DNA of 64,000 nt from Candidatus Dadabacteria bacterium. Lineage in GTDB: Bacteria > Desulfobacterota_D > UBA1144 > Nemesobacterales > Nemesobacteraceae. The notes beneath the pieces are model-generated. The model saw nothing but the letters and a program-made list of their open reading frames with translations. It did no database searches and was not told where the DNA came from. The stretch covers positions 77,335 through 141,334 of the forward strand of contig CATOTB010000006.1 of NCBI GenBank assembly GCA_951812945.1. The letters are read 5' to 3'. Made by a program: the position numbers and the translations under genes. Numbering within the stretch: position 1 is the first letter of the stretch; every line of letters begins with the position of its first letter. Shown piece after piece: positions 2,997 to 48,372 of this stretch.

Positions 2997-3039
2997 CGAC
3001 GGCTTGGATTGGCGAGCCAGCGCAAGGGAAAGGTCGAGT

Positions 3040-8100: not shown

Positions 8101-11100
8101 TCAAAAACTGCCCAGTCCATGGACATCACCACGGAATTCGTTACGTCCTGGCGCACAAGTCTGTCAAACGCCCTGAGACCTTGCTGCGGTGTAAACCAGC
8201 GGCCACCGAGCGCCGCTCGTTGCCGTTCAATCCGGTCTCGTTGTTCCGCCGCTTCGCCGATCTCTGACCACGCCCCCCAGGCAATGGCCTGTCCCGGAAG
8301 CCCCACCGCCCGCCGGTGGGCGGCGAGCTGGTCCAGGAACGCATTGGCTGCGGCGTGGTTTGCCTGGCCCGGATTGCCCATGACGCCAACTCGGCTCGAA
8401 AAGAGGATGAAGAGCTCCAGATCGCGGTCCGCCGTCGCACGGTGCAGGTGCCAAGCGCCCAGCACTTTCGGCCACAGCACCTGCTCGAACCTCTCCCAAC
8501 TCTGGTTCGACAGTGAAGCGTCCGACAACACTCCCACGCTGTGAATCACTCCGCCGAGCGGCGGAAGTTCCCGATCCATCCGCGCCAGCATGTCGTCCAC
8601 AGCTGAGGCATCCGTCACATCTGCCAGTTCCACCCTCACCGTGGACCCGCGTTTACGCAACGAGTCGATCTCTTTTTCAACCTCGGGGTCTGGTGGTCGT
8701 CGTCCATTCAGCACGATCGCCCCCGCACCGTGATCCGCTAACCAGCCGGCCACGGCGCACCCGATACCGCCCAGGCCGCCGGTCACCAAGTAGGTCCGGT
8801 CCTGCCGCAAACCACCCCCCCCCGCAAGCGGTGGTGTCGTCACGACGATCTTCCCGAGGTGCCGGGCCGATCGCATGAATCTCAACGCAGCTCCCGCTTC
8901 GGCCAGGGGCCACCTGCTGTGGATAAGCGGTTTCAGTTCTCCCGCCGTAAGGCGCTCCATCACGTCCCGGAGAACCCTTCCGACCCAAGCCGGCTCAGTC
9001 TTCTTCAAAACATCCAACTCCAGGATGGAGTAGGCAACGTCGGGACGAACTGCCGCCATCTCCTCCTCGCTCAGAATGTCCCGCCTGGCCAATTCCACAA
9101 ACCGGCCACCCTGTGCTAGGCATGACAGACTCGCCTCGATGAATCCCTCTCCCGTCAGGCTGTTGAGCACCACGTCGACTCCTGCGCCGTCCGTGGCCTC
9201 GAGGATCTCTTCCCCGAACTTTGTCGTGCGGCTATCGAACACATGCTCCACACCGATGGAACGGAGATAGGGCTGCTTCGATGCACTCGCCGTGGTATAC
9301 ACCTCGATGCCTACAGCACGCGCCAACTGGATGGCCGCGAGTCCCACACCTCCAGCACCTGCGTGAATCAGCACCCGTTCGCCAGCGTTCAACCCTGAGA
9401 GCTCATACGAGAATGCGGCTGAGACGAACACATTCGGCACCGTGGCGAGACCCGTCACCGAGATTCCCGATGGCGCGGGCGCCACCAATTCCTCCCGTAT
9501 GATCATTTCGGCCGCGAACGCACCACCGAACCCCAATCCAACCACATGATCGCCGGCCGAGACGGTTGACACCTCGGAACCCACATCGAGCACGTGGCCA
9601 CACATCTCCTTGCCTAAGTTCCCCTCTTCAATGAAGCCAAGCGAACGAAATACATCCCAGAAATTCATTCCGGCAGCCTCGACCGCGACGCGGACTTCTT
9701 TCGGCTCCAGGGAACGCTCCGGCAGCGGCTTGACGTAAGGCTTGTCGAATATGCCGTCCGGGTCCGGAGCCAGCACCCAGGCCGACTGCTGCGGCAATGT
9801 TAACCGCTCCGTGTTGGTCCCGGCCCGGACCAGGCGGGCTACCATACGTCGGCCGTAGCGATGTGCGATGTGATTCTCGTGATCGGGATACAGCAGTTCG
9901 TCCGGGAGTTCAGGCGACTGCGTTTTTGAGGGGTCCAGGTCAATCATCCTCGGCTTTAGATGCGCCGCTTCGCGGGACACCACCTTCCCGAAACCCCATA
10001 GCGTCGCGCCGGCAAGTTCCCCGCCAAGCTCCTTCTCCAGCACCTGCGCGCCCCGCGTAAGAAACCACACTCCGTTCTCGGGCACCGCATCGGAGTCAAC
10101 CAGCCCCTGCGTCAACGCCAGTGCGCTCGCCACCGCTCGCCTCGTGTCCTTCGCCATCTCTTCGTTTGTCGCATTCAGGCCGTGGCCGCCCAGCGCCACG
10201 AGGTGCACGACTCCTTTCAGAGGCGCATCCCCGGGTAGGCACTCCAACAGCGATTGCCACGACTCGCGCCGCTCCATGTCCACCGTTGACCGGACAATGC
10301 CGGACCCGTCCACTTCTGAATTCCCGTTCTCCGGGAGTTGATGGTCCGCCAGCACGACTGTCTGGTTGCGTGCGGCCAGATCTGCTGCCAGTTCTTCGGC
10401 CACGCCAGCGCTGTCCGCCGCCAGAACCCAGATGCCCGGTCTTTCGGTCACCTCAGCCGGACCCCGCGCCACGATCACACCCTTATCCGGCATCTCGGCC
10501 GAGTCGGACTCTTCCAACCCCAGCACTTCTATTTCCCCGAAACCCACGTCAGTGAGTACGCGACGCCACACAGCAGGATCCACCAAGGCGTGTTGCGGTC
10601 GGTAGGCATCGGCGAACCGCCACCAGCCGTCCAACGGCCCGAAAGTCAAGTCCATCCAACCCATACCCCTCAGGTTCTCGAGCGCGACCAGCTGTCCTGA
10701 TGGCGCGAGAAGCCGCCGGCAGTGCGCAAGCGTCTCATTTAGGTATTGCGTGGCGTGCAACACATTGGATGCAATCACCAGGTCGTAACCGTGGAAATCG
10801 AATCCCTGCTCCACCGGATCCTTCTCGATATCCAGCATGCGGTAATCTATCGACGCTTCATCGCCTCCGAAGCGCGCCTCTGCTTCCGCAAAGAAGCCCG
10901 CCGAGATATCCGTGTACATGTAGTCGAACCGTCCTTCCGGGAGTTCCGGCAGGATGGCCGCGGTCGCCGACCCTGTACCCGCCCCGACTTCGATCACCCT
11001 GAGGCGTCGGCCGTCGGGCAACCCCGCCACAAGAGTCTGAACCGTTTCTCTCAGTATCCGGTTCGCCGCACGCGCCACCGGAGCTTTTCGATACAGATCG

Positions 11101-14100
11101 CCCGGGGTCGGGTCTCCGCTGCTAAACAGGATTGTCAACGGGTCCGCTCGGCCCAGCAGCACGTCTGCCAGGGCGTTACCAGACCGTCGAAAAAGCCCGA
11201 TCTCGGTCAAGCCGTGGGGATATAGCTCAGCTATTCGGGTAGCGAATTCTTCTGTGTCAAGCGGCATTTCATCCGGCAAGGGATCCCCGGATCCGATCCT
11301 CACGACGAAGTTGCCGTCCACCTCCTCCAACACTCCGGACTTGGCCAGCATCTCGAGCATCCGGCGGAACAAGCGCTTATGCTCCTCCACGACATTCAAG
11401 CGCCGCCGCAAGTCCTCTGAATCCACGGCCGCGCCCCCCTCGCGTTCCCACCCCAGCTTCTTCAAGGTCTCTAGCGCGCAGGATCGAGACCACCTCTCCA
11501 GGTCAGTCAGGAGGGCGCTTCTGTCCTTGGGCGTGACTCCTTCGTCGGCCAAATAATCTGAGAGCAACCCCGAGCGCGTTGCAACCGTTGCCTGAGACGC
11601 GAGGAAATCTGCGGACAGCATTCCGGGCGTGAGAGCCCTTTCGCGCCACACAACCTCATACAGCAGTTCATTCACCCCTTCGACTGCGGAGAGCAGCGCC
11701 GCCCGCGTCGCGCGTTTCACCATGTATCCGCTCAACCCGCCAAGCAGAACTCCATTGGGATCGTAGATGCGCAATTCTCCGTTCCAGACCTCGGGCGGCT
11801 CGCCCTGTTCCACTTCCGTTCCTTGGGAAGCCTCACTCATGCGCACGTGGCAGAGCAAGCGATCCGGCAGCCGATCCGCCAGCCACAGTCGCTCCCAGCC
11901 AAATGGTAGATAGGTGGTTTCCTCTTCTGCCCCGCCTGGATTGCGCGCTGCGGCCATAACCTGAAAGCAACCGTCCAGCAGGAGCGGATGAACGTCCAGC
12001 CCGTTGCGGCCGAGAGCTTCAGGGAAAGAAATCTCGCCTAACGCCTCGCCCGGCCGGGACCAGACCCTCCCGAGCGTACGGAAGAACGGGCCGAGATTAA
12101 TCCCCGTACTGGCCCGGGCACGGTAGTAGGCTGCCACGTCTATTGGCGACAGAGGGGCCTTGAGGCTTTCGAGATCGATCCGCCTACCGGCTTCCGGCAT
12201 CGGGGCGTCCGGCGATACGCGGCCTTCCACGTGTAACGTCCAGCCCTCTCCACTCCCCTTGCTGAATATCTGGACACGACGCGAATTTGCCCGCTCGGAA
12301 GAATCAAGCACAACCTGCACCTTTCGGCCCTCGTCACCGGTACCGTCCTCGGAACCCTCCTCCGGGAAAATCAGCGCGTTGTGCAGCTGCATGTCCTCCA
12401 CAACCACCGCGCCGCTCTCTTCTGTAAGGGATACCGATGCCGCCATGGCCCCATAGAGCGCGCCCGGAGCTATAACCCGGCCGAACACCCGGTGGTCGCT
12501 CAACCACTCCGGATCCGACCGGAACACTTCTGTCTCGAATGTGACCTCGCCGCTGGCGGATTCGTGCCGGACCCCCAGCAAGGGGTGGCCGACGCCCGAG
12601 CGTTGTTTTCTATTTGAATCAAGCCAATGGCGTTCGCGTTGGAATGGATAGCTTGGCAACGAGATGCGACGGCGCGCCTCCCCCGCGAAGAGCCCTTCAA
12701 AACGAATCGGGAGCCCCGCCTGATACGCTTCCGCGACCGCCCGCGTGAAATCGGCGCCATCCGCGGACGCTCGGGATTCACCAGACGGTGGGCGCAGGCT
12801 TGACAGCACCGTGGGTGGCGGTGTCTGTACCGAGTCCGGCCAAGCCGCGCCCGTCATCGTGGCCAGGATCGGTCTCGGCCCTATCTCCAACACCAAGTCC
12901 ACCCCGAGTTCCGCCAACGTCCGGACACCGCGGGCGAACGCCACCTTCTCGCGGGCATGCTGCCTCCAGTAGGCTCCGTCCAGCGCTTGGCCAGGCTCCA
13001 GCGCTTGGCCAGTCAGGTTGCTGACCACGGTGAGGGAGGGTGGTTCGATCGCCACACTATCCAAGGAAGCTTCCAGCATGTCCAGAGCTGGCTCCACCAA
13101 GGCGCTGTGGAACGCGCGGGCTGTGTTCAGCCGTCTTACCCGGACTCCTTCCGATTCGAAGCGCTTCGAGATGGTTTCAATCTCTGCAACCGGGCCGCTC
13201 ACCACTTGGTGGCCGCCGTTGTCCGCCGAGATGCTCAGCCCAGCACTGGCAGATGATTCGTTCAGCTCCTCGACCGTTGACGCCACTCGTGCCGGAGTGG
13301 CAAAAACCGCTGCCATTGCGCCCGGTTCGGTTTCCGACAGCAGGGTGCCCCGCGCCGCGGCAAACCGCATTCCATCCTCCATGCTGAACACTCCCGCTGC
13401 CTGCGCCGCCGCCAGTTCCCCGACACTGTGCCCCAACACCACGCTGGGACGAACCCCTACACTCGACCAGAGCGCCGTGAGCGCGCACTCGAGGGCGTAG
13501 AGGGTCGGCTGCTCCCACGCCGTATCGCTCAGATTGCCTTCGCCGCACCCGAACATCACGTCAAGCAACGAGGCGCCTCTTTCAGCCCGAAACACCTCCT
13601 CACAGCGGTCGAGAACCGCCCGCGCCACCGGCTCACGTTCGTAGAGCGCCTTTCCCATGCCGGCCCATTGGCTTCCTTGCCCGGTATAAACAAACGCCAC
13701 TTTCATCGCTGTTTGCGGCCCTGGACTCTCGCCCACATTCCCCAGCGCTTTCAGCCCCTCCCGTAGCGACCCGGTATCCCGAAACACCACGCCTGCACGA
13801 TGATCAAAATGGCTCCTCCCTACGCCTGCAGTCCACGCCATGTCCGAGAGTAAGGGTTCTAAAGAGGTGCTTTGGGAAGCAAGATCCTCTGGATGCTCGT
13901 CCAGCCACAAGAGGTAACGCTCCGCAAGTTCCCGGAGTGCGGTCACCGATTTGCCGGACAGCGGCAGCAACCGGGTCTCGCGCTTCCTTAACCCTTGCTC
14001 AGGCAGCGGCAAACTCTCCGCGGCCTTCGGCAAAGAGACTGTCACTGTCTGGGCTGAGCCAACAAGCTGACGCTTCCCGTAGGGCAATTCCCCTGGGGCA

Positions 14101-15479
14101 ATGTATTCTTCCACCACTATGTGGGCGTTCGTCCCGGATATCCCGAAGGAGTTTACTCCTGCCAGTCGCGCCCGTCCGCCACGCTGAGGTAAGTCCATCA
14201 TGGACGAAGTAACCTTTAAAGGCAGTTGGTCCCAATCGAGGCTAGGGTTGGGAACCTGGAAATGCAGGTGCTTCGGAATCACGCCGCGCTGCATCACCAG
14301 CACTGCCTTGATCAGACCAGCGATTCCGGCAGCCGACTCGAGGTGGCCGATATTGGTCTTTACGGAACCGATCAAAAGAGGATGATCGGCTTTGCGTCCT
14401 CTGCCGTAGACAGCGGAGACGGCCTCGATCTCAATCGGGTCGCCTACAGCTGTTCCAGTTCCGTGCGCCTCCAGGTAATCCACATCCGAAGCGGGAACTC
14501 CGGCCTGCGACAGCGCCGCTTCCATCACCTGTTCCAATGCGGGGGTGTGCGGTACGGTCAGTCCGGTGCCGGGTCCGCCGTTATTCACCGCCGAGCCTCG
14601 GATCACCCCCCAGATCCGATCGCCATCCTCCTCGGCCTCGCTCAGCCGTTTCAGGATAACGACGCCGCAACCTTCACCGCGCACGTAACCGTTCGCAGAC
14701 GCATCGAACGTCTTGCACTGCCCGTCCGGAGACAGCATCATCGCATCCGCACGGAGTTCGAAAATGCGACTGTTCAGGATGGCCTGCACACCGCCTGCAA
14801 TGGCCAGATCCGCCTTGCCCTGCTGCAGGTCTGCCACCGCGTCGTGGACCGACACCATGGACGACGCGCACGCGGCGTCCACTGCCTTTGCTGGTCCCAT
14901 GAGGCCCAGCACGAAAGAGACCCGTCCGCTGGTACCGTTGAGGTTTGTGCCGCTCAGAGCATAAAGACATGAGGCGGCCTCGGCAGGTTTCCTTGACTCC
15001 ACTACCAGCATCCTGTATTCGTCGTTGCTGATCCCGGTGTATACCCCGGTGCGGCTGCCCTTCAGCCGATCCGGATCCATACCCGCATCCTCAAGAGCCT
15101 CCCAAGTGGTTTCCAGCATCATCCGCTGCTGTGGATCCAGCAACTGGGCCTCGACCGGAGAAATACGAAAGAACCCCGCGTCGAACTGCTCGATTCCGTC
15201 GACATAGCCACAGAAACGACAGGCCTTGCTCGGAATCTGTCCATCGGGGAAAAGCTCGTCCATACGCCCGACGCCGGAACCTGGGACGCCCTCCGTCACC
15301 ACGTTCTGGCCGGCTTCGAGCAGGCGCCAAAAGGCCGGTATACTCGGTGCGCCGGGGAACCGGCACCCCATGCCCACGATTGCTATCGGTGGACCGAGTC
15401 CAGATTTTTCCTGTCTCTGAATTTCAGAGTGGGGCGATGATTCCCCAGAGGAATCGCAAGACTTGTTTGATTCCGTCAT
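5106..15479 (-). CDS. Type I polyketide synthase with domains KS-AT-DH-cMT-ER-KR-ACP-KS-AT(degenerate)
   Basis: 3457 aa, ATG preceded by GGGAGGGAG. KS1: DAACASS Cys, EAHGTGT, NIGHLE. AT1: GHSVGE plus RAFHS (malonyl-type). DH: HRVFGRVIAPG plus LLDGCFQ. cMT: VIEVGAGTGS SAM motif. ER: LIHAGAGGVGLAAIQLA. KR: TGGLGGIG. ACP: FFDLGMDSL. KS2: DMACAS, EAHASGS, NIGHLE. AT2: GHGTGE, no Ser. Ends ...YPFQRRRHWV. Confidence 0.95.
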   Translation of the reverse strand: MTESNKSCDSSGESSPHSEIQRQEKSGLGPPIAIVGMGCRFPGAPSIPAFWRLLEAGQNVVTEGVPGSGVGRMDELFPDGQIPSKACRFCGYVDGIEQFDAGFFRISPVEAQLLDPQQRMMLETTWEALEDAGMDPDRLKGSRTGVYTGISNDEYRMLVVESRKPAEAASCLYALSGTNLNGTSGRVSFVLGLMGPAKAVDAACASSMVSVHDAVADLQQGKADLAIAGGVQAILNSRIFELRADAMMLSPDGQCKTFDASANGYVRGEGCGVVILKRLSEAEEDGDRIWGVIRGSAVNNGGPGTGLTVPHTPALEQVMEAALSQAGVPASDVDYLEAHGTGTAVGDPIEIEAVSAVYGRGRKADHPLLIGSVKTNIGHLESAAGIAGLIKAVLVMQRGVIPKHLHFQVPNPSLDWDQLPLKVTSSMMDLPQRGGRARLAGVNSFGISGTNAHIVVEEYIAPGELPYGKRQLVGSAQTVTVSLPKAAESLPLPEQGLRKRETRLLPLSGKSVTALRELAERYLLWLDEHPEDLASQSTSLEPLLSDMAWTAGVGRSHFDHRAGVVFRDTGSLREGLKALGNVGESPGPQTAMKVAFVYTGQGSQWAGMGKALYEREPVARAVLDRCEEVFRAERGASLLDVMFGCGEGNLSDTAWEQPTLYALECALTALWSSVGVRPSVVLGHSVGELAAAQAAGVFSMEDGMRFAAARGTLLSETEPGAMAAVFATPARVASTVEELNESSASAGLSISADNGGHQVVSGPVAEIETISKRFESEGVRVRRLNTARAFHSALVEPALDMLEASLDSVAIEPPSLTVVSNLTGQALEPGQALDGAYWRQHAREKVAFARGVRTLAELGVDLVLEIGPRPILATMTGAAWPDSVQTPPPTVLSSLRPPSGESRASADGADFTRAVAEAYQAGLPIRFEGLFAGEARRRISLPSYPFQRERHWLDSNRKQRSGVGHPLLGVRHESASGEVTFETEVFRSDPEWLSDHRVFGRVIAPGALYGAMAASVSLTEESGAVVVEDMQLHNALIFPEEGSEDGTGDEGRKVQVVLDSSERANSRRVQIFSKGSGEGWTLHVEGRVSPDAPMPEAGRRIDLESLKAPLSPIDVAAYYRARASTGINLGPFFRTLGRVWSRPGEALGEISFPEALGRNGLDVHPLLLDGCFQVMAAARNPGGAEEETTYLPFGWERLWLADRLPDRLLCHVRMSEASQGTEVEQGEPPEVWNGELRIYDPNGVLLGGLSGYMVKRATRAALLSAVEGVNELLYEVVWRERALTPGMLSADFLASQATVATRSGLLSDYLADEGVTPKDRSALLTDLERWSRSCALETLKKLGWEREGGAAVDSEDLRRRLNVVEEHKRLFRRMLEMLAKSGVLEEVDGNFVVRIGSGDPLPDEMPLDTEEFATRIAELYPHGLTEIGLFRRSGNALADVLLGRADPLTILFSSGDPTPGDLYRKAPVARAANRILRETVQTLVAGLPDGRRLRVIEVGAGTGSATAAILPELPEGRFDYMYTDISAGFFAEAEARFGGDEASIDYRMLDIEKDPVEQGFDFHGYDLVIASNVLHATQYLNETLAHCRRLLAPSGQLVALENLRGMGWMDLTFGPLDGWWRFADAYRPQHALVDPAVWRRVLTDVGFGEIEVLGLEESDSAEMPDKGVIVARGPAEVTERPGIWVLAADSAGVAEELAADLAARNQTVVLADHQLPENGNSEVDGSGIVRSTVDMERRESWQSLLECLPGDAPLKGVVHLVALGGHGLNATNEEMAKDTRRAVASALALTQGLVDSDAVPENGVWFLTRGAQVLEKELGGELAGATLWGFGKVVSREAAHLKPRMIDLDPSKTQSPELPDELLYPDHENHIAHRYGRRMVARLVRAGTNTERLTLPQQSAWVLAPDPDGIFDKPYVKPLPERSLEPKEVRVAVEAAGMNFWDVFRSLGFIEEGNLGKEMCGHVLDVGSEVSTVSAGDHVVGLGFGGAFAAEMIIREELVAPAPSGISVTGLATVPNVFVSAAFSYELSGLNAGERVLIHAGAGGVGLAAIQLARAVGIEVYTTASASKQPYLRSIGVEHVFDSRTTKFGEEILEATDGAGVDVVLNSLTGEGFIEASLSCLAQGGRFVELARRDILSEEEMAAVRPDVAYSILELDVLKKTEPAWVGRVLRDVMERLTAGELKPLIHSRWPLAEAGAALRFMRSARHLGKIVVTTPPLAGGGGLRQDRTYLVTGGLGGIGCAVAGWLADHGAGAIVLNGRRPPDPEVEKEIDSLRKRGSTVRVELADVTDASAVDDMLARMDRELPPLGGVIHSVGVLSDASLSNQSWERFEQVLWPKVLGAWHLHRATADRDLELFILFSSRVGVMGNPGQANHAAANAFLDQLAAHRRAVGLPGQAIAWGAWSEIGEAAEQRDRIERQRAALGGRWFTPQQGLRAFDRLVRQDVTNSVVMSMDWAVFEEAVEDRPSLLEDLLSTSPEADADSPAQADDLMSRVRKTTVAEREGMLVSFLQGEVQAVLRLPSAPTPTVGFFDLGMDSLMAVELRNRLNRAFAGEYVVSNTAVFDYPDVTTLAHYLADELGQLDGDDGTAPTPETAAPPPRPLVATEDDDIAIVGMACRFPSAKNLSEYWHLLESGTDAVTDGRQAGDPRRDAFGDSNSEGTTHLHGAFVENIEWFDSRFFHIAPIEARMMDPQQRMMLETSWEAVEDAGIAPDSLRGSRTAVYAGVAGSEYRHVIEASGKTGIHLGTTASITTGRVASALGLEGPAMAIDMACASALAAAHQAVGGLQRGEVDLALAGGVHAALSHDVSRFMLDVGMLSPSGQCHPFDASADGHVRGEGCGMLVLKRLSEAEVDGDRIWGVIKGSAVNQNGTSAGLTVPNGPAQERVMEAALVRAGLTGTDVDYLEAHASGSQLGDAIEVHAASSVYGRGRDADCPLLIGTVKSNIGHLETAAGVAGLIKAVLAMKQGVIPKHLHFKEPNPQINWDQLPVRVTSEKTDWPPHSDKPPRAAVSAFSMSGANAHMVVEGYGIATEDDSASAGVQSLRGAALPVPVSLPEPVANLPLATDGLTERTVRFLPLSGKSDGALRDMAGQYLSWLDEHIAGSSPKAPALADIAWTASVGRSHFDHRAAVVFGDTQSLRAGLTKLAETVATPDKPAPQPVTRVAFLYTGEGSQWVGMGEALYDSEPVVRAVLDHCDAVVRAEKGASLLDVMFGRAEATGDLNDAAWAQPALYALECALTALWASVGIRPNVALGHGTGEIAAAWAAGVFTLEDGLRLALTRGTLMAALPGADPNQSLNGLEVAFAESAVSPPSLTLVSGVTGRVVDADNPLDVAYWRTQACETEAFGTGVSTLAELGVDTVVEIGPGAVLGPQVNLQWPDSSDGEEAAASPFVLASLMRPSDEDSEEDSTGFAEAVAGAYEAGLALSFEGMFAGESRRRISLPTYPFQRRRHWV
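5310..5990 (-). other. PKS domain AT2, degenerate and predicted inactive
   Basis: aa ~3164-3390. The active-site motif reads GHGTGE (nt 5697-5711) instead of GHSxG. The ~70 aa carrying the specificity motif are absent relative to AT1. Confidence 0.75.
6390..7655 (-). other. PKS domain KS2 (second ketosynthase)
   Basis: aa ~2609-3030. Cys2774 in DMACAS, His2909 and His2949 present. Confidence 0.8.
7740..7982 (-). other. PKS domain ACP (integrated)
   Basis: aa ~2500-2580. GMDSL with Ser2538. Confidence 0.8.
8220..8798 (-). other. PKS domain KR (ketoreductase) with His in place of the catalytic Tyr
   Basis: aa ~2228-2420. TGGLGGIG Rossmann motif. SSRVGVMGNPGQANHAAANAF has H2375 (nt 8355-8357) where the canonical motif is GQxNYAAAN. 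Confidence 0.7.
8835..9782 (-). other. PKS domain ER (enoylreductase)
   Basis: aa ~1900-2215. NADPH-binding LIHAGAGGVGLAAIQLA. Confidence 0.8.
10530..11342 (-). other. PKS domain cMT (C-methyltransferase)
   Basis: aa ~1380-1650. ExGxGxG SAM-binding motif VIEVGAGTGS at aa 1496-1505. Confidence 0.75.
11730..12602 (-). other. PKS domain DH (dehydratase)
   Basis: aa ~960-1250. HxxxGxxxxP with His996, and DxxxQ with D1169. Confidence 0.75.
12810..13700 (-). other. PKS domain AT1 (acyltransferase, malonyl-type signature)
   Basis: aa ~594-890. GHSVG Ser685 and an RAFHS specificity motif. Confidence 0.8.
14106..15389 (-). other. PKS domain KS1 (ketosynthase)
   Basis: aa ~31-458. Catalytic Cys204 is encoded at 14868-14870, and both catalytic His motifs are present. 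Confidence 0.85.
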
Positions 15480-24665: not shown

Positions 24666-25121
24666 TTGATAAACAGGATATGCACTGTTTTTTCAACTTT
24701 TTTCGGGGTGGGATACGTACCTGGAGCCCCTGGAACTGCGGGAACTCTGGCGGCGGTCGGAGTCGTATATCTGCTCAGTCTCGCAGGCGGCACAATTCTC
24801 TTCTCGGTACTCACTCTGGGACTGATTATCATCTCTTTTGCAACTGCGGGCCGTTGCGCGTCTATTCTCGGGAGGGAAGACCCGCCTGAGGTCGTCATTG
24901 ATGAAGTATGCGGATTTTTGGTATGTATGCTTTTTGTCCCATTAAATCCCATTAACCTCGCACTCGGTTTTTTCCTGTTCAGGTTTTTCGATATAGCGAA
25001 GCCGTTTCCGATACGAAGAGTCGAGAGACTTCCTGGTGGGTACGGTATCGTTATGGATGACGTTTTAGCCGGAGTGTACGGCAACCTGTGTCTTCAGGCG
25101 TTTGTTCTTCTTTCCGGTTGA
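24666..25121 (+). CDS. pgpA: Phosphatidylglycerophosphatase A
   Basis: 151 aa. PgpA family pattern GVGYVPGAPGTAGTL...DEVCGF...FDIAKPFPIRRVERLPGGYGIVMDDVLAGVY. Confidence 0.8.
   Translation: MINRICTVFSTFFGVGYVPGAPGTAGTLAAVGVVYLLSLAGGTILFSVLTLGLIIISFATAGRCASILGREDPPEVVIDEVCGFLVCMLFVPLNPINLALGFFLFRFFDIAKPFPIRRVERLPGGYGIVMDDVLAGVYGNLCLQAFVLLSG
25011..25121 (+). repeat. Direct repeat copy 1: the 3' end of pgpA
   Basis: ~108 bp, roughly 85% identical to 26225-26332 by eye. Confidence 0.85.
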
Positions 25122-25421
25122 GATTACCGAGCGATCTGTGTTGAGATGGCTGCGATGGAGACATTCACTAAAGATGCCCTCATGCTTTTGTGGATTGGCA
25201 CATTAATTGATTATGTAGATTGATCTAGAAAGCGGCTTTGGAGTGCCTGATTTTCAGATTTGTAAGGGTTAGGCAAGTCAATCTATCCACACCCTTAATT
25301 AACATTTCTTGCCTGAACAGTAAATCTCTGGGCGATATGTAGATTTTTGCTCTACCTAACTCTTGCAAAGTCAGTTTAAAGAAAACCTCAATCCTGCCCA
25401 TGTTTAAGACATTATTCCATA

Positions 25422-26063
25422 TTACTCTTTTTCTTTTCTAATTTGTTTTGAATTAGATACTTTTTCAGCTAATTCTTCTAGGCTACGGCTTAATGCTTTT
25501 TGGTAAGCTTTGCCGAAAATCTTTCCAATATTTCCACAAAAAGCACCACTGCCACCCTCACTATGTCCTCGTCCACCTGCGGTTGTCCCAAGTAACTTTT
25601 CTCCTGTCTGTCCTCTAGCGTCTATTCCGAGGACAATTTCTGCTTCTCCTCTACATTTATCACTCCAGAAACCAGCGCGACACTCTACAAGTGGAAGAAA
25701 ATGGTCAAGACTAATTAAAACATAACCAGATATATTTTCCCTTTTCATATCATCTATGGTTGGATTGGTTTTCCTTATCGTAACTTCCTCAAATATGTTT
25801 TTGGTCGTATTTGTTAAAGATACTTGTATTGAATCCCCAGAATCGAATGCGACACTATGAGTACTACACACAAAACTACTTACCTCTATATCTCTTGAAA
25901 AGATGGTCGACCCTTCATCTATAACAACTGCCCAGTCACCTTTAATTTTCTCTGAATAGGAAGATCGTAGCTTAACTGCAGTTGCTGCGGGTCCAGTAAC
26001 TTTGTGTGCACAACCCGTTACGAAAATTACAATTGTCAAAATAATTGCGCTAGCATATTTCAT
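25422..26063 (-). CDS. Hypothetical lipoprotein in an AT-rich insert
   Basis: ~213 aa starting at MKYASAIILTIVIFVTGC (a lipobox). The surrounding ~1.1 kb is markedly AT-rich (estimated below 40% GC), unlike its flanks. Confidence 0.5.
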   Translation of the reverse strand: MKYASAIILTIVIFVTGCAHKVTGPAATAVKLRSSYSEKIKGDWAVVIDEGSTIFSRDIEVSSFVCSTHSVAFDSGDSIQVSLTNTTKNIFEEVTIRKTNPTIDDMKRENISGYVLISLDHFLPLVECRAGFWSDKCRGEAEIVLGIDARGQTGEKLLGTTAGGRGHSEGGSGAFCGNIGKIFGKAYQKALSRSLEELAEKVSNSKQIRKEKE

Positions 26064-26224
26064 AAGTGCCTCCAGTGTAATCCTGTACATCAACTACTTC
26101 GTCTGCAATTCTTTCCCGTGCCGTTTTTCCCAATTGAACTTGCAAGTTTTTGAATAACCGATAAGTCCTAAATATTTAGTAGAGGTTGTAATTCTAGACT
26201 CACTTTAAAGTCAAGATGTTTCTT

Positions 26225-26332
26225 ATACGAAGAGTCGAGAGGCTCCCGGGTGGGTACGGTATTGTTATGGATGACCTTCTGGCCGGGGTGTACGCTAACC
26301 TCTGCCTTCAGGTGCTTGTCCGGCTCTATTGA
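26225..26332 (+). repeat. Direct repeat copy 2: a diverged duplicate of the pgpA 3' end, in frame through a stop
   Basis: Encodes ...IRRVERLPGGYGIVMDDLLAGVYANLCLQVLVRLY* versus the genuine pgpA end ...IRRVERLPGGYGIVMDDVLAGVYGNLCLQAFVLLSG*. Confidence 0.85.
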
Positions 26333-26365
26333 TGATACCCACCGTGTTCTTCGCGGAACCGGGTT

Positions 26366-26791
26366 TCATGCGTAGAGCAGAAATGGATTCTGAACGGTTA
26401 CCGTGCCGTACATGCGACCGTGCTGAAAATCTTCTGAGAACAGTTCTGCTATGCCGTGAACTTCAGCGTAAGCCCAGATATGGGCATCAAACCACGACAA
26501 GCCGTATGCCGCCGTCCCGCGCAGAGCCATTCGCAGCACAGATTCATCGGGGTAAATAACCGGGAACTGGGCCATCAGTTCTTCTGCTTCACGTATCGCG
26601 TCTGGAAGATCAAGTATGCGATTTTCGGGCGCTCCCCGGGTTGTTGCCGCGACGAATTCAATGATTGATTGGTGTGCGATACGCACATGCCCTCTCTCGG
26701 CTCCTTCGCGAACAACATGCCTCGCAATTCGTTTTTTGTCCGGGAACCGACCGTCGTAACAATAAATCAATATGTTGGTGTCAATCAGCAT
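26366..26791 (-). CDS. vapC: PIN-domain toxin VapC
   Basis: 141 aa, MLIDTNILIY...D...E...D PIN pattern. Overlaps the upstream antitoxin gene by 11 nt. Confidence 0.75.
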   Translation of the reverse strand: MLIDTNILIYCYDGRFPDKKRIARHVVREGAERGHVRIAHQSIIEFVAATTRGAPENRILDLPDAIREAEELMAQFPVIYPDESVLRMALRGTAAYGLSWFDAHIWAYAEVHGIAELFSEDFQHGRMYGTVTVQNPFLLYA

Positions 26792-27077
26792 TTGAGCTGC
26801 CCCGAGTGTAGAGTTCTTCCCGGGTCCAGCCTCGCTCAGTTGCCGGGGACACTGGTTTCACCGCTTCACGGGCATCCTGTCGGGCCATTGCCTCATCAAA
26901 CATACGCAGACGCGCTTCGGTGTCGAGTTGCTTTTTCTGCGTCCGGGCATTTGCGGGCACCACGCGGATGGTTTCTCCGGCCTCCTCAAAACGTATATCA
27001 TCTCCTGGCCGAATGCCGTAACGCTCGGCAATTGCTTTTGGCACTGTTACCTGTAATTTGCTGCTGACTTTAGACAT
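26781..27077 (-). CDS. vapB: Antitoxin VapB, AbrB/MazE (SpoVT) fold
   Basis: 98 aa with an N-terminal swapped-hairpin pattern VTVPKAIAERYGIRPGDDIRFEEAGETIRVVP. Confidence 0.7.
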   Translation of the reverse strand: MSKVSSKLQVTVPKAIAERYGIRPGDDIRFEEAGETIRVVPANARTQKKQLDTEARLRMFDEAMARQDAREAVKPVSPATERGWTREELYTRGSSNAD

Positions 27078-27163
27078 ATCTTTACTTTATCAAAGAAAAT
27101 TTCTTTGTCAATCATGTGATAACCTTTCCACCGGGTTTTCTTACCGGTTAGAATTACCCGGCA

Positions 27164-28408
27164 ATGTGCGTTGAGGTAATCACGACCGGAAACGAAATAA
27201 TGAGCGGTCTTACCCGGGATACCAACTTCAGCTGGGTAGCCGCGGAACTGTCCTCATCCGGTATTGAGGTTAAGCACCACTGCGCGGTTGCTGATGATCT
27301 TGAGGATCTTCTTGCTTCTTTTGCCACGGCATCAAAGAGGGCCAGATTTGTTATAGTCACAGGAGGGCTCGGTCCCACCGAGGATGATCTGAGCTCGCTT
27401 GCCGCCTCAAAGTTTCTTGGAACTCCCCTTGTTTTCAATCCGGCAGTCTATGAAGACATCGCCCGAAAACTTAGGAAGAGGGGAAGGGAGCCCAACATCC
27501 ATCATGAAAAACAGGCCATGTTTCCCGAGGAAACGACGGTTATCGAAAATCCCGTCGGCACGGCATCCGGCTTCAGCTTTGTTTCCGGCAACTCGAAATT
27601 CTACTTTCTTCCCGGTGTCCCAAGGGAATTCAGGCGAATGTTCTCAGAACATGTCTTCCCGGATATAAGCGGTGCCGTGGAAAAAGGGAAAATCCTGCGC
27701 GTGAGGGTGCTTAAGACCTTCGGCCTCGGCGAATCCGAAGTAGCGGAAAAGCTTGAGGGCTTCTCCCCCGAAGGGGTGGATGTTGGATACAGGATCCGCC
27801 TGCCCGAGATTCACCTTCGGCTCACGGCTTCGGGCCATGACGGCGAGGTGCTGGATTCGCTGCTGCGCGATGCCTGCGTGCAGACGAAAGAAAGGCTGGG
27901 GAACTTTCTCTTTTCCCAATGGGAGGAGAGCCTTTGGGAAGTAACCGCATCTCTGCTACTTGAAAAAGACCTGACCCTCTCTGCTGCGGAGTCCTGCACG
28001 GGAGGGCTTTGCTCGAGCCGGTTTACGGACATTCCCGGAAGTTCGACTTATTTTCTGGGTGGAGCTGTGGTTTACAGTAACGATTCCAAGGAAAAACTCC
28101 TCGGGGTAAGCGCGGAGACCCTTGCGCAGTTCGGCGCGGTGAGCGGGGAGGTGGTCTCCGAGATGGCCCGCGGGGCAAGAGATCTGTTTGGAAGCGATAT
28201 AGGGCTCTCCATATCCGGGATTGCGGGTCCGGGTGGCGGAACCGTGGAGAAGCCCGTGGGTACGGTGTGGTTCGGATTCAGTCATGTCTCCTCGGGGACT
28301 TTCTGTGAGAGGAAAAATTTTACGGGCACGAGGGATGAGATAAAAAACTTTGCCGCCGCAACGGCGATCGATATGGTTAGGAAGTTCTGCCTCGATTATG
28401 TAGCATAG
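27164..28408 (+). CDS. cinA: CinA family competence/damage-inducible protein (with a C-terminal PncC-like domain)
   Basis: 414 aa. N-terminal MoCF-binding-like domain VEVITTGNEIMSG and a C-terminal CinA domain. Immediately upstream of recA. Confidence 0.85.
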   Translation: MCVEVITTGNEIMSGLTRDTNFSWVAAELSSSGIEVKHHCAVADDLEDLLASFATASKRARFVIVTGGLGPTEDDLSSLAASKFLGTPLVFNPAVYEDIARKLRKRGREPNIHHEKQAMFPEETTVIENPVGTASGFSFVSGNSKFYFLPGVPREFRRMFSEHVFPDISGAVEKGKILRVRVLKTFGLGESEVAEKLEGFSPEGVDVGYRIRLPEIHLRLTASGHDGEVLDSLLRDACVQTKERLGNFLFSQWEESLWEVTASLLLEKDLTLSAAESCTGGLCSSRFTDIPGSSTYFLGGAVVYSNDSKEKLLGVSAETLAQFGAVSGEVVSEMARGARDLFGSDIGLSISGIAGPGGGTVEKPVGTVWFGFSHVSSGTFCERKNFTGTRDEIKNFAAATAIDMVRKFCLDYVA

Positions 28409-28451: not shown

Positions 28452-29471
28452 ATGAGCGATACCGACGAGAAAAACAAGAGCATAAACGTAGCCATTGATA
28501 CGATAGAGAAGCAGTTTGGAAAGGGCTCCATAATGAGACTTGGCGAGGATGCATCTCTCGCCGATATTCCGGTGATTACCTCGGGCTCCCTAGGGCTCGA
28601 CATAGCGCTTGGCGTCGGAGGTTTTCCCAGGGGAAGGATCGTCGAGGTTTACGGTCCGGAGGCCTCGGGCAAGACCACCATAGCGCTCCACGCCATCGCC
28701 GAAGCCCAGAGGGCCGGCGGAATAACGGCTTTTGTCGACGCCGAACACTCTCTTTCCACAAGTTACGCGGCGGCGCTCGGTATCAAGGTGGAAGATCTTC
28801 TTATTTCCCAGCCTGATTTCGGAGAACAGGCCCTTGAGATCGTCGATACCCTCATAAGAAGCAACGCGGTTGATCTCATAGTGCTTGACTCGGTCGCGGC
28901 CCTTACCCCGCGCGCCGAAATCGAAGGGGAGATGGGAGACACTCACGTAGGTCTTCAGGCGAGGCTGATGTCGCAGGCGCTTCGCAAGATCACGGCTAAC
29001 GTCAGCCGCTCAAAGACCATAGTGATTTTCGTTAACCAGCTTCGCATGAAAATCGGGGTTCCGGCGTATATGAACCCCGAAACCACCACTGGCGGTAACG
29101 CTCTTCGGTTCTATTCATCGGTGAGAGTTGACATAAGGCGCATTGGATCTCTTAAGGACGGCGACCGTATAATTGGCAACAGGGTCAGGGCGAAGCTTGT
29201 CAAGAACAAAGTCGCCCCGCCTTTTAGGGAAGCGGAATTCGAGGTGATTTTCGGAAGGGGAATATCAAAACTCGGGGAGCTTGTGGACCTGGGAACTAAA
29301 TTCAATGTGGTAAAGAAAAGCGGGACTTGGTATTCCTATGACGGGGAGAGAATGGGGCAGGGAAGGGAGAACTCCAAGAAGTTTCTGCACGAAAATCCGG
29401 AAATTCGGGAAAAGATAAGAGACGAGATCATAAAAGCCTCGGGGATGGGTTCCTCTGAGGAAGCGGAGTAA
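28452..29471 (+). CDS. recA: Recombinase RecA
   Basis: 339 aa. Walker [10 protein letters not shown] plus the conserved RecA core. Confidence 0.95.
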
Positions 29472-40759: not shown

Positions 40760-42022
40760 ATGCCCGAGCAAAGAATCATAAGAAATTACGTAGACAGGAC
40801 TAACTCCTACACTATCGAGTCGTATCTGTCCTCGGGTGGATACTCAGCGCTTAGAAAAGCACTCGGCATGGTGCCCGGAGAGATAACCGACGCGGTCAAG
40901 AAATCGGGTCTCCGTGGAAGGGGAGGCGCAGGCTTTCCGGCCGGCATAAAGTGGAGTTTTATCCCGCCTGATTCCAAGAAACCGGTTTATCTCTGCTGCA
41001 ACGCCGATGAAAGCGAACCCGGAAGCTTCAAGGACAGAGAGATTCTTGAGAGAGACCCCCACCAGATGATCGAGGGCATAATAATTGCCTGCTACGCTAT
41101 CCGCTCCCACAAGGCCTACATATATATAAGGGGAGAGATGCCCTACGGAGCCAAGAGAATACAGCAGGCCATAGATGAAGCCTACGAGCACGGCTATCTC
41201 GGCAAGAACATACTCCTAAGCGGTTTTGATATTGATATGAAGCTGTACGTAGGCGCCGGCGCCTATATATGCGGAGAGGAAACCGGTCTTCTCGAGTCAA
41301 TAGAGGGAAAAAAGGGAGAACCGAGACCCAAGCCTCCTTTCCCGGCACAGATAGGCCTTTTCGGCTGTCCCACGATAGTCAATAACGTGGAGACGCTCGC
41401 ATGCGTTCCTCATATAATAAACAACGGGGCGGACTGGTTTGCCTCGATAGGGACTCCCAGAAACACCGGAACCAAGATTTTCGGGCTGAGCGGACACATA
41501 AACAATCCCGGGCTTTACGAGCTTCCACTTGGAATAAACCTTCTTGAACTGATTGAGGAGTATGGCGGAGGAATTCCCGGGGGAAGAAAAATAAAGGCCG
41601 TTTCTCCCGGCGGTTCTTCATCCGCGGTTTTTTCCGCGGACGAACTGGACATTGCGATGGATTTCGACACCATAGCGGCTGCGGGCTCCATGCTTGGAAC
41701 TGCGGGTGTAACTGTGATGGATGAGACGGTGAGCATGATCAAGGTAGCCCAGAATCTTGCCCATTTCTACAGGGATGAATCATGCGGGCAATGCGTTCAG
41801 TGCAGGGAAGGAACGTGGTGGCTTGAGAAGATACTGAGAGAGATTGACGAAGGGAAGGGATCTCTTGAATACCTCGACATAATGCTTGACGCGTGCTCGC
41901 AGATGAGGGGAACGACCATATGTGCCCTTGCCGACGGCTGTGCGATGCCCATTGAATCGATAGTGACGAAATTCAGGGACGAGTTCGAGGAGCATATAAA
42001 AAGAGGGCAATCCCAAGGTTGA
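40760..42022 (+). CDS. nuoF: NADH-quinone oxidoreductase subunit F (51 kDa, FMN/NADH-binding)
   Basis: 420 aa. GRGGAGFPAGIKWSF FMN site, and a C-terminal Cys cluster for N3 [4Fe-4S] (CGQCVQC...C). Confidence 0.9.
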   Translation: MPEQRIIRNYVDRTNSYTIESYLSSGGYSALRKALGMVPGEITDAVKKSGLRGRGGAGFPAGIKWSFIPPDSKKPVYLCCNADESEPGSFKDREILERDPHQMIEGIIIACYAIRSHKAYIYIRGEMPYGAKRIQQAIDEAYEHGYLGKNILLSGFDIDMKLYVGAGAYICGEETGLLESIEGKKGEPRPKPPFPAQIGLFGCPTIVNNVETLACVPHIINNGADWFASIGTPRNTGTKIFGLSGHINNPGLYELPLGINLLELIEEYGGGIPGGRKIKAVSPGGSSSAVFSADELDIAMDFDTIAAAGSMLGTAGVTVMDETVSMIKVAQNLAHFYRDESCGQCVQCREGTWWLEKILREIDEGKGSLEYLDIMLDACSQMRGTTICALADGCAMPIESIVTKFRDEFEEHIKRGQSQG

Positions 42023-48365: not shown

Positions 48366-48372
48366 CCAGGGC

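Follow-up and report, generated by a model that had tools for sequence, protein, structure and literature searches.

A pgpA 3' end displaced behind a lipoprotein gene at the pgpA/cinA junction of a Dadabacteria genome, and its possible origin in the stacking of two hotspot alleles

In the minimal mobile elements of Neisseria, different cassettes occupy the same interval between conserved genes and are swapped via homologous recombination in the flanks, a clean replacement which leaves no duplicated gene ends. The C-terminal displacement of Rhs genes is accompanied by a trough of low GC and by direct repeats that vary in length (Jackson et al. [quoted passage not shown] 2017, PMC5361080); for Rhs, CDI and T6SS loci the proposed mechanism is either homologous recombination by way of circular intermediates or illegitimate recombination facilitated by homology (PMC2935791, PMC5361080). 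When e14 or phage 21 inserts in icd, it brings a replacement 3' end and leaves behind an icdC fragment (PMC13626634).

The locus described here is found at the 3' end of pgpA in a Candidatus Dadabacteria bacterium, within a stretch of 64,000 nt which is referred to as the window. As in Rhs, CDI and T6SS loci, a new 3' end and low-GC cargo have been added to a conserved gene and the former end has been pushed downstream, where it is preceded by a partial repeat of variable length; arrays grow by repeated events, and there is no integrase. However, the gene concerned here encodes a housekeeping phosphatase with equivalent tails and not a polymorphic toxin with its immunity gene, and the cargo consists of lipoprotein, toxin-antitoxin or defence genes. 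As in the case of e14 and icd, the functional gene uses the tail borne by the element, a diverged in-frame native fragment sits at the far end, and the tail differences are largely synonymous or conservative. Whereas e14 has its own integrase and a fixed core, here there is a 1.2 kb insert with no recombinase and no fixed crossover point, and the "element" appears to be another allele of the same locus. The mosaic of identities between the window and its closest strain fits the exchange of flanks by which minimal mobile elements move; unlike in those elements, stacking here leaves displaced tails and relics of the junction. Integron arrays and CIMEs likewise hold ordered small single-operon cassettes, many of them toxin-antitoxin pairs, with repeats of the attachment region in places, but at this locus there is no intI, there are no attC-like palindromes, the orientations are mixed and the extents of the repeats vary.

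The locus comprises the following features, given as positions in the window with strand:

24666-25121, plus: pgpA (phosphatidylglycerophosphatase A), intact, 151 aa (Pfam PF04608 PgpA, E 1.4e-43)
25011-25121, plus: left, in-gene copy of the pgpA tail (C1, ending LQAFVLLSG and a stop), of the type found in relatives with pgpA abutting cinA directly
25122-25155, plus: remnant of the pgpA-cinA spacer of the ancestral junction, followed by the initial ~22 nt of cinA, from alignment to eight class-A junctions (pgpA abutting cinA, without vapBC)
25156-26221, minus: cargo module X, AT-rich (38% GC), delimited by blastn, alignments and GC content
25225-25401, minus: 58-aa ORF downstream of the lipoprotein gene; nothing supports its status as a gene
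25422-26063, minus: lipoprotein gene, 213 aa, with signal peptide, lipobox VTGC and a GGAGG ribosome-binding site
26185-26214, minus: candidate promoter for the lipoprotein gene (TTGACT, 18 nt, TACAAC), as read from the sequence
26225-26332, plus: right, displaced copy of the pgpA tail (C2, ending LQVLVRLY and a stop), with no 5' part of the gene, of the type that accompanies vapBC
26321-27135, minus: vapBC cassette, inserted with respect to the ancestral junction, as seen from the nhmmer pieces [..-141/146] and [141-260]
26366-26791, minus: vapC, PIN-domain toxin (Pfam PF01850)
26781-27077, minus: vapB, MazE/AbrB-type antitoxin (Pfam PF04014), overlapping vapC by 11 nt
27136-27163, plus: remnant of the ancestral pgpA tail, namely its last ~16 nt (TTTTCTTACCGGTTAG), and a 12-nt spacer, directly upstream of cinA
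27164-28408, plus: cinA, the right-hand conserved flank of the hotspot (Pfam; synteny in L001-L022)
28452-29471: recA, which follows cinA

The 3' end of pgpA is repeated 1214 nt downstream over 114 nt with 82% identity (24992-25105 vs 26206-26319). By BLAST the repeat covers 102 nt at 84.3% identity with an E value of 3.7e-25 (25004-25105 vs 26218-26319), so that the original prediction of a diverged duplicate of about 108 bp, in frame and ending in a stop, rests on a significant pairwise similarity. The weak similarity of the right copy begins already at 26206, the identity of the two tails falls to 77% once the last 25 nt are counted in, and the longest run identical between them is 17 nt. 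C2 is in frame, ends in a TGA stop and translates as IRRVERLPGGYGIVMDDLLAGVYANLCLQVLVRLY, a fragment which by itself matches positions 110-140 of the Pfam PgpA model (E 4e-8). Over the first 29 codons ten differ, eight of these synonymously, and nine of the 12 base differences fall at third positions; both copies therefore have a history as coding sequence. In function the two tails are equivalent, and the displaced one has no obvious selective value.

Each tail belongs with a different class of allele in the relatives. The left copy remains homologous to the ancestral junction as far as 25155, the nhmmer piece [1-190] of the junction model mapping to 24966-25155 and thereby covering both C1 and the spacer/cinA relic, in which the ATG of cinA now reads ATC (25134-25136). 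The presence of this relic after the left copy indicates that the copy derives from an allele of the type in which pgpA abuts cinA. C1 is 87%, 86% and 85% identical to the tails of L002, L016 and L085, and 73-77% identical to vapBC-type tails; tblastn was also used to place it among the tail types of the relatives. C2, together with the intergenic stretch before vapC, is closest to L011 and L013. Among the close relatives with a resolved junction, 12 have pgpA abutting cinA and C1-type tails and six have vapBC and C2-type tails, and the two classes interleave when ordered by recA and parA identity. The C2-type tail is contiguous with vapBC in L001, L008 and L010-L013, and the C1-type tail is contiguous with the lipoprotein module in L084-L087, the same spacer/cinA relic adjoining that module in L084 and L085. 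The roles assigned to the two copies by the original prediction, which took the in-gene tail for the genuine end of pgpA and the downstream duplicate for the import, are thereby reversed: it is the in-gene tail, of the no-vapBC type, that travels with the lipoprotein, and the downstream fragment is the one linked to vapBC. As the left tail is linked to the lipoprotein allele and the right tail to the vapBC allele, two hotspot alleles would appear to have been stacked, with 3'-end displacement as the outcome.

The closest strain, L001, is 92-96% identical to the window and has an empty site, with the order parA-pgpA-vapCB-cinA and a single tail; it is thus an undisplaced close relative of a locus whose two tails come from different lineages. 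When mismatches against L001 were mapped, dense divergence was found from 24859, within pgpA, which marks the left edge of a recombinant patch. The diverged patch extends over 24859-26426, with 46 mismatches in 24859-25120, and to the right of it there is one mismatch in 865 nt (26427-27291), against a background divergence elsewhere of 2.5-12%. Mosaic identity of this kind, as left by tracts of homologous recombination, is therefore present in the conserved flanks.

The 13-nt pgpA/cinA junction is a hypervariable hotspot across about 30 Dadabacteria loci, and the synteny comparison proposed by the original prediction shows, besides the empty site of L001, a changing content. In L001-L022 and L084-L090 the site is either empty or occupied by vapBC, by a ParE-like/Unstab_antitox pair, MNT/HEPN, MazEF, a SNIPE nuclease, an IS110 transposase or the lipoprotein (SNIPE and Unstab_antitox were taken from Pfam tables, and identification was by eye for the other pairs and for the IS110 transposase). 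Different cassettes are hence found between the same two conserved genes in different strains, as in other hotspots between core genes. In terms of the nhmmer junction model the window reads [1-190] X [27-146] vapCB [141-260], and other alleles are made up as follows:

L016: [1-241]..[123-260]
L085/86: [1-198]..[121-260]
L084: [1-198]..[141-260]
L090: X..[6-260]
L003: [1-140][123-258][2-141]..[124-260]
L012: [1-141]..[115-260]

Compared allele by allele, these pieces indicate that the extents of the repeats differ between events: right-hand copies start at model positions 2, 6, 27, 115, 121-124 or 141, and left-hand copies end at 141, 190-198, 241 or 258, so that the partial direct repeat ahead of a displaced 3' end is of variable length. 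About 20 junction alleles form a series from the empty site through single insertions and stacked alleles to decayed displaced tails and a 27-nt scar. A relative carrying the lipoprotein at this place with no repeat, which would have spoken against the prediction, was not found: L084, L085 and L086, where both flanks are present, all have the repeat, with different extents, and in L090, where the left flank is missing, another pgpA tail, now decayed, lies to the right of the lipoprotein module. L087-L089 end inside the island and were left out of this judgement. A scan of metagenome contigs with pgpA returned only one close relative, L093, and the exact junction between X and the second copy is found in this window only, among the data searched; the contig collection had no entry for the lipoprotein or pgpA sequence of the window.

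The cargo, predicted to be an AT-rich insert with a lipoprotein gene, is just that: the GC content of the ~1.2 kb insert is 38.2%, against 52.5% for the whole window, and the product of the gene, whose real start is the ATG at 26063, carries the VTGC lipobox. The DNA of module X is 78-90% identical to that of the module at the same place in L084-L090. These loci also share its right end (...AAAGTCAAGATGTTT), beyond which there are three different continuations, and this end lies within 2 nt of the point at which two other alleles diverge (L085/86 and L084/L090). Homology to copies of X at other loci (L083, L091, L092) is confined to the coding sequence, so X has no portable ends. The putative promoter at positions 26185-26214 was not called by a consensus scan; in L090 the same positions read TTGATT, 18 nt, TATAAT. 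The lipoprotein is a member of an uncharacterised family with no Pfam model, and it is found repeatedly next to defence genes. Its AF2 model has a pLDDT of 93.4 (62-sequence alignment), and Foldseek against the PDB gave weak matches to DUF330, Cj1090c, CsgG, HpaA and LptE (TM 0.35-0.57); the predicted fold therefore resembles those of outer-membrane lipoproteins, with matches too weak to suggest a function. Neither the lipoprotein nor the toxin-antitoxin genes had a match in PADLOC or PHROGs, and the 58-aa ORF had none in Pfam, PADLOC or PHROGs.

To the right of the displaced tail, the prediction of a vapBC module directly beyond the duplicate is borne out by vapC and vapB, which occupy 26366-27077; the module is not merely adjacent, however, but is itself an insertion before the ancestral stop. 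It has the layout predicted for a type II VapBC module, with a PIN toxin, an overlapping AbrB/MazE antitoxin gene and its own promoter-like sequence upstream of vapB (TTGACA-16-TAAAGT, 27111-27084, by scan). The cassette comprises the last four codons and stop of the C2 tail (26321-26332), vapC, vapB and this promoter, and its vapC protein is 100% identical to that of L001. It was inserted 13-15 nt before the ancestral pgpA stop and without target duplication; the relic upstream of cinA was recognised by alignment to class-A junctions and by the nhmmer piece [141-260], at 27136-27255. The pieces given by nhmmer are those of a simple insertion in the window, L001, L008, L011, L013 and L017. A duplication of ~20 nt of the pgpA end around vapBC was considered and rejected, as nhmmer places a simple insertion at model position 141/142. 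An inverted repeat (25111-25128/27175-27192) is also present in the window.

The same architecture, as had been predicted, occurs a second time in the window, at nuoD:

292-1114, plus: nuoD tail (292-330) and its displaced copy (1076-1114)
405-656 and 638-1054: Phd/YefM and PIN genes of the toxin-antitoxin pair flanked by them

The nuoD copies are identical at 31 of 32 positions, after which the final three codons differ synonymously (GAC AGG TAG vs GAT CGC TGA); the relative L173 has the Phd/PIN pair and lacks window positions 1061-1205. Elsewhere, the end of a glycosyltransferase gene is repeated (319 nt, 84%) next to a lipoprotein homolog in L091, and ABC-transporter/PBP genes show the architecture (663 nt, 96%) around a Phd/PIN pair in L174. 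When 48 window genes were scanned at the protein level with 40 residues from either end, duplicated ends came up for pgpA and nuoD only. A third repeat in the window (47229/47905) was rejected as a displaced end, being a pair of tandem Ogg-like paralogous genes. Of the suggested recurring cassette mechanism, the recurrence of the architecture is thus supported, at nuoD, L091, L174 and the pgpA/cinA alleles, but a dedicated cassette integrase is not.

The reading which we favour, with moderate confidence, is that the locus is an allele of the pgpA/cinA hotspot in which two alternative fillings have been stacked through a homologous and a microhomology-level join, and that an insert lies between two pgpA ends because of this stacking. 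One block would be a lipoprotein-type allele, consisting of the no-vapBC pgpA tail, the spacer/cinA-start relic and module X; the other would be a vapBC-type allele from about pgpA codon 115 onwards, with the C2 tail, vapCB, the relic of the old tail end and cinA. The blocks would meet at the upstream edge of the lipoprotein promoter, with pgpA now using the tail linked to the cargo and the other tail, truncated on its 5' side, lying downstream. The likeliest route is a homologous exchange with its anchor in pgpA (or cinA), combined with one illegitimate, microhomology-level join at 26221/26225; DNA from a related strain would then have been taken in through homology-facilitated illegitimate recombination, for which no dedicated recombinase is needed. 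The X end and pgpA 24999-25009 have GTTT(C), or AAG-NN-GTTT (7 of 9), in common, a match so short and imperfect that it could be due to chance. Homology-facilitated illegitimate recombination is rare in experiments (quoted in PMC5361080). The direction could be either, X-type DNA entering a vapBC-type genome or the reverse, and the finished composite may then have spread between strains by ordinary homologous recombination. We infer the action of RecA and of illegitimate joining, the order of the events and the route by which the DNA entered.

Several other origins were weighed against this stacking of alleles. A circle consisting of X and a pgpA-tail segment (~model 45-190) could have integrated by a single RecA crossover into a vapBC-type pgpA tail, in the manner of Campbell; it may have stemmed from an older X-type allele that looped out between its direct repeats, and cargo flanked by gene ends would then be a self-propagating, recombinase-free cassette. 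All alleles fit the form pgpA..[..k], cargo, [m..]..cinA expected from an [m..k] circle, L003 resembles two whole alleles in tandem with cinA codon 58 joined to pgpA codon 54, X-type alleles with long flanking repeats able to loop out do exist (L090, [6-198]), and the model has been published for Rhs tips (PMC2935791). However, as the left copy is of the class-A type and the right copy of the vapBC type throughout, the crossover would be confined to the first ~17 identical nt (ATACGAAGAGTCGAGAG); tails 84% identical over ~100 nt are a poor substrate for RecA, no circle or excision product was observed, and we consider this origin possible but rather unlikely. A misjoin by the assembler of co-occurring lipoprotein-type and vapBC-type strains might be suspected from the restriction of the X/copy-2 junction to this window among the searched data, and mixtures of strains are expected in such metagenomes. 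It is nonetheless highly improbable, given that the 4-5 bases identical at the join, and the at most 17 between the tails, are far below assembly k-mer sizes and that comparable stacked alleles occur on megabase-scale contigs (L003, 2.28 Mb; L016, 1.92 Mb). That a 3' gene end is directly repeated is all that speaks for local tandem duplication of the pgpA end, with divergence in place and later arrival of the cargo; a strain 92-96% identical (L001) has no insert, so the 16-23% divergence of the tails cannot have arisen in place. The differences are also mostly synonymous, although the fragment cannot be translated as part of pgpA, and the two copies match different classes of allele among the relatives. 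Local duplication is already refuted by the empty site and by the affinity of each copy to its own class, in agreement with the prediction that the repeat was not copied locally. A diversity-generating retroelement is rejected with it, as the mismatches involve all bases and are not adenine-specific, there is no reverse transcriptase and the insert encodes only the lipoprotein; we give these last two origins practically no credence.

A further candidate is a non-autonomous site-specific cassette (a CIME, an Xer-exploiting IMEX or an integron cassette), with a tyrosine or serine recombinase acting in trans, the pgpA tail serving as att site and the array growing by accretion. Direct repeats of a 3' end with an insert-borne functional copy are a classic signature of integrases, for example that of e14 in icd (PMC13626634); X ends sharply on its right side in three contexts, and at nuoD the repeated core is 31/32 identical and gives way to ends that are diverged but synonymous. 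An end of X as sharp as this fits a defined recombination site better than illegitimate joins at random, which speaks against the favoured reading, and selection to keep the promoter accounts for it only in part. Against a site-specific origin, no integrase or transposase was found by Pfam in the scanned ORFs of the window (several, including one of 3457 aa, were excluded) or in the Pfam tables of related contigs covering parts of the window, and among the listed hotspot-allele ORFs of at least 60 aa the only one, as judged by eye, was the IS110-like transposase of L010. Repeat boundaries vary between alleles and no shared crossover core was found, vapBC was inserted without duplication, and the copies of X elsewhere share coding sequence only. 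At the boundaries there is no conserved att-like core or hairpin and no structured inverted repeat, which together with the lack of an integrase sets the locus apart from integrons; it has neither the terminal inverted repeats nor the fixed-length target-site duplication of an IS, transposon or MITE, the gene-end "duplications" being diverged and of variable length (32 to >600 nt). A hairpin across the pgpA stop and cinA start was rejected as a target, with an RNAalifold energy of -0.17 kcal/mol over 14 junctions and pairing broken in many relatives, as was a dif/Xer-like site at the left end of X, where the near-palindrome is not conserved in L084 or L085. We therefore think a site-specific origin improbable.

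Gene gain without an integrase by the stacking of hotspot alleles is a well-documented, ordinary route, and as the process has already been met at Rhs and T6SS loci and in transformation experiments, the finding carries a known principle over to the housekeeping genes of an uncultured lineage and does not reveal a new one. The movement of small cassettes such as toxin-antitoxin pairs and single defence genes that lack their own recombinase has so far been poorly documented, and the allele series at pgpA/cinA allows the steps to be read, from insertion through 3'-end displacement and spread by homologous recombination to decay. It also carries a warning for annotation, in that an imported copy can look like the genuine gene, and the other, older allele can be what lies there as an orphan fragment. 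More speculatively, and we regard this as unlikely, conserved gene ends could be portable, recombinase-free attachment sites for looped-out circles, the sharp end of X perhaps being a recombination signal. If this were true, cargo flanked by gene-end repeats would loop out via RecA as a circle with one repeat and would re-target the same housekeeping gene in any related genome, and toxin-antitoxin pairs, small defence genes and the lipoprotein would spread as "tail-carrying cassettes" among streamlined symbiont genomes.

The pgpA locus of the window is a case of 3'-end displacement through the stacking of two alleles of a single hotspot. Repeat scans of the window found the last ~108 nt of pgpA again 1214 nt downstream. 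One scan aligned the two copies over 114 nt (82% identity) and BLAST over 102 nt (84.3%, E 3.7e-25), so the similarity is significant. The features of the locus are as follows.

24666-25121, + strand: pgpA (Pfam PgpA, E 1.4e-43), ending in copy 1 of the tail
25422-26063, - strand: lipoprotein gene, with lipobox VTGC and GGAGG ahead of the ATG, within the AT-rich module X (25156-26221)
26225-26332: displaced pgpA tail, copy 2, in frame with TGA at its end
26366-27077: vapC (PIN) and vapB (MazE/AbrB) by Pfam, to the right of the displaced tail

The original prediction of an in-frame duplicate ending in a stop, and of an AT-rich lipoprotein insert with vapBC to its right, was confirmed: the 35-residue translation of 26225-26332 alone matches C-terminal positions of the PgpA model in Pfam (E 4e-8), and the intervening DNA has a GC content of 38%, compared with 52.5% in the window. 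Across the first 29 codons of the tails ten differ, eight of them synonymously, and nine of 12 base changes lie at third positions, a pattern which argues that both copies evolved as coding sequence.

The pgpA relatives come from MAGs named as Candidatus Dadabacteria or Thermodesulfobacteriota; in twelve relatives pgpA abuts cinA with a stop-to-start gap of 12-13 nt. An nhmmer model of 260 positions, built from eight pgpA/cinA junctions (pgpA stop at positions 154-156, cinA ATG at 169), was used to scan all related loci. Contig L001, reached through an exact match to the window VapC, is 92-96% identical to the window across 20 kb and has the order parA-pgpA-vapCB-cinA-recA with one pgpA tail, the window being longer there by exactly 1214 bases; the insert is therefore missing from a close relative. 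In L001 and three further vapBC loci (L008, L011, and L013), counted where the right flank was covered (that of L010 lies outside the DNA compared), nhmmer placed model positions 1-141/145 before vapCB and 141-260 after it. Flanked by these pieces, vapBC is a simple insertion 13-15 nt ahead of the ancestral pgpA stop, without duplication, and the new last pgpA codons (...RLY*) come from the cassette. Locus L012 has positions 1-141 followed by 115-260, about 27 positions being repeated. The window itself reads 1-190 (24966-25155), X, 27-146 (26206-26325), vapCB, 141-260 (27136-27255) by nhmmer. Copy 1 thus extends beyond the pgpA stop, across the ancestral spacer and ~22 nt into cinA, in which the relic start codon is now ATC (25134-25136); the left, in-gene copy is a fragment of an allele in which pgpA abuts cinA.

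The affinities of the tails point the same way. The in-gene tail (...LQAFVLLSG*) is nearest to those of non-vapBC alleles (L002, 87%; L016, 86%; L085, 85%) and the downstream fragment (...LQVLVRLY*) to those of vapBC alleles (L013, 86%; L011, 85%), with the intergenic stretch ahead of vapC common to the copy-2 region and L011. Ten close homologs of the lipoprotein were found; the gene occupies the same pgpA/cinA site in L084 and L085-L089, and in L084-L087 the cinA-start relic adjoins the left side of X as in the window, the X DNA being 78-79% identical there and 90% identical in L090. Together these observations show that the cargo travels with the tail pgpA now uses, and that the orphan fragment is the tail type that travels with vapBC. 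The non-local origin originally proposed for the duplicate thus stands, given the empty site in L001 and the different allele classes matched by the copies, whereas its assignment of the downstream copy to the incoming DNA has to be inverted.

Identity to L001 is mosaic. As far as 24858 about 2% of positions are mismatched, and the next 262 nt (24859-25120) hold 46 mismatches; identity is 45-83% for the copy-2 region and intergenic stretch; 26427-27291, which takes in vapCB, the junction relic, and the opening 128 nt of cinA, has one mismatch in 865 nt; and the flanks beyond differ by 2.5-12%. This pattern argues that either the composite allele or that of L001 was swapped by homologous recombination, with crossovers that would lie in pgpA and near the vapC stop, and points to very recent sharing of the vapBC region between the window strain and L001 by recombination.

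Among the relatives the pgpA-cinA interval is hypervariable, being empty or holding one or more different cassettes: vapBC, ParE-like/Unstab_antitox, MNT/HEPN, MazEF, a SNIPE/T5orf172 nuclease, an IS110-type transposase, or the lipoprotein (SNIPE and Unstab_antitox were identified in precomputed Pfam tables; IS110 and the remaining pairs were recognised by eye in ORF translations). In many alleles the junction is directly repeated, to extents that differ and are given here in model positions.

L016: 1-241 and 123-260
L085/86: 1-198 and 121-260
L084: 1-198 and 141-260, together with a 27-nt scar matching the left end of vapBC
L090: X followed, after 43 nt, by a decayed tail that begins near position 6
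L003: a tandem of two almost complete alleles, with cinA codon 58 joined to pgpA codon 54

The 27-nt stretch of L084 (CCGGCTCTATTGATGATGCCCGCGTG; ~6820-6850, minus strand of the locus) is the left end of the vapBC cassette, lies at the vapBC insertion point with vapBC absent, and confers a vapBC-type C-terminus on pgpA; it may be either a deletion scar or a precursor of cassette insertion. The only transposase-like gene seen in the hotspot alleles is a 419-aa ORF in the L010 island (~8824-10083, locus coordinates), IS110-family-like by eye and not by Pfam. The right end of X (window 26207-26221) switches, within 2 nt, to three continuations (window; L085/86; L084/L090) and adjoins the upstream side of a putative -35 box. 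The end of the pgpA tail (25111-25128) is 89% complementary to the cinA coding start (27175-27192), and in the ancestral junction this pairing would enclose the cinA start codon in a stem, for which RNAalifold found no support across 14 junctions.

How the alleles came to be stacked can be explained in several ways. Homologous recombination would take place at one conserved anchor, either pgpA (left) or cinA (right), while the other end was joined illegitimately, the X end '...AAGATGTTT' to pgpA '...AAGCCGTTTCC', which share a microhomology of 4-5 nt, or 7 of 9. Such homology-facilitated illegitimate recombination is a described process in transformable bacteria and has been proposed to account for T6SS arrays (PMC5361080), and we consider the chances of this linear route about even. 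An equivalent route, in which a circle with cargo and tail segment integrated by a single crossover, fits the general formula of all the hotspot alleles and has been proposed for Rhs tips (PMC2935791), but is rather unlikely. A site-specific recombinase acting in trans is retained as a distinctly improbable reading, chiefly on account of the right end of X, whose position agrees to within 2 nt across three different contexts, a coincidence not fully explained. Against a site-specific element, no recombinase was found in the scanned ORFs and alleles, there is no fixed crossover point, and the tails share at most 17 identical bases in one run. No integrase was seen in the hotspot alleles, the related-contig Pfam tables covering parts of the window, or the scanned window ORFs, a set that leaves out several ORFs including one of 3457 aa.

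An assembly chimera is unlikely, as only 4-5 bases are common at the join and similar stacked alleles occur in megabase contigs, although the X/copy-2 junction was not found in a second assembly. Local duplication is excluded by the empty site in L001 and the allele-specific affinity of each copy. An integron was rejected (no attC-like structure, no conserved hairpin at the boundaries or junction), as were an IS or MITE (terminal inverted repeats are lacking, and the "duplications" are long, diverged, and of variable length) and a diversity-generating retroelement (mismatches not adenine-specific, no reverse transcriptase). Since the pgpA/cinA junction is so tight, the repeats may have been kept because any insertion has to preserve a usable C-terminus for pgpA and the upstream signals of cinA. 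We infer that these signals may lie within the pgpA tail; a scan found a promoter-like TTTCCA-18-TAGAAT at 27125-27154.

The architecture recurs, as originally predicted, at other genes. At nuoD in the window a Phd/PIN pair stands between the tail (292-330) and its second copy (1076-1114), which are identical at 31 of 32 positions before three last codons that are synonymous yet different; L173 (3600-4480) keeps the pair and lacks window 1061-1205, that is, the second tail and ~100 nt of 3' flank. The repeats of the two other cases are as follows.

L174 (4.2 Mb contig), 2927-3589 and 6371-7033: 663-nt, 96% direct repeats, taken from a gene for an ABC-transporter ATPase and one for a periplasmic-binding protein, around the same Phd/PIN pair and a cytochrome c gene
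L091, 2626-2943 and 4863-5180: glycosyltransferase 3' end, 319 nt, 84%, around a 40% GC insert with a 75-77% identical lipoprotein homolog and two other small secreted ORFs, adjoined by HEPN and DndB genes

When the ends of 48 window genes were compared at the protein level, no duplicated gene ends emerged beyond those of pgpA and nuoD. The nuoD-locus PIN toxin (window 638-1054) has 80-95% protein identity to over 100 cluster representatives, whose genomes range from 1.9 to 6 Mb, and the few matches with a source name are Rhodospirillaceae and Boseongicola MAGs, which suggests recent spread of one Phd/PIN toxin-antitoxin module between distant lineages.

Elsewhere in the window, a Zeta-toxin/AAA_33-like ORF (42322-42840, - strand) between nuoF (40760-42022) and gatB (42921-44351) may be another small selfish insert; a duplicated gene end was looked for there and not found. 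Tandem paralogs lie at 47045-47695 and 47721-48479 (- strand), the first matching Pfam Ogg-HhH (8-oxoguanine DNA glycosylase) and the second ~35% identical to it at the C-terminus. The 3457-aa ORF (5106-15479, - strand) is probably a polyketide or non-ribosomal peptide synthase, as the matching L173 region adjoins PP-binding and phosphopantetheinyl-transferase genes.

The lipoprotein has no family match in Pfam, PADLOC, or PHROGs. A profile search recovered 250 cluster representatives, mostly lipoproteins of ~210 aa with a few fused to caspase or trypsin domains. The best PDB matches of its AlphaFold model (pLDDT 93.4, 62-sequence alignment) are the outer-membrane lipoproteins DUF330 XCC0632, Cj1090c, CsgG, HpaA, and LptE (E 5e-5 to 2e-3, TM 0.35-0.57), which place it in a fold class but assign no function. 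At other loci it lies beside defence genes (type I restriction-modification, Eco57I-type methylase, HEPN, DndB, and SNIPE), which hints at a putative role in conflicts involving phages or other mobile DNA.

Among known architectures, the C-terminal displacement of Rhs, CDI, and T6SS loci comes closest, and at the population level the concept nearest to the pgpA-cinA interval is that of the minimal mobile element or inter-core-gene hotspot; the nearest look-alike, e14 in icd with the icdC fragment left behind (PMC13626634), differs in mechanism. Displacement is thus already known in kind and, found here at housekeeping genes of an uncultured lineage, is no surprise to the specialist. The pgpA-cinA allele series is unusually complete, and its use lies in the study of how toxin-antitoxin and defence cassettes are gained without a recombinase.
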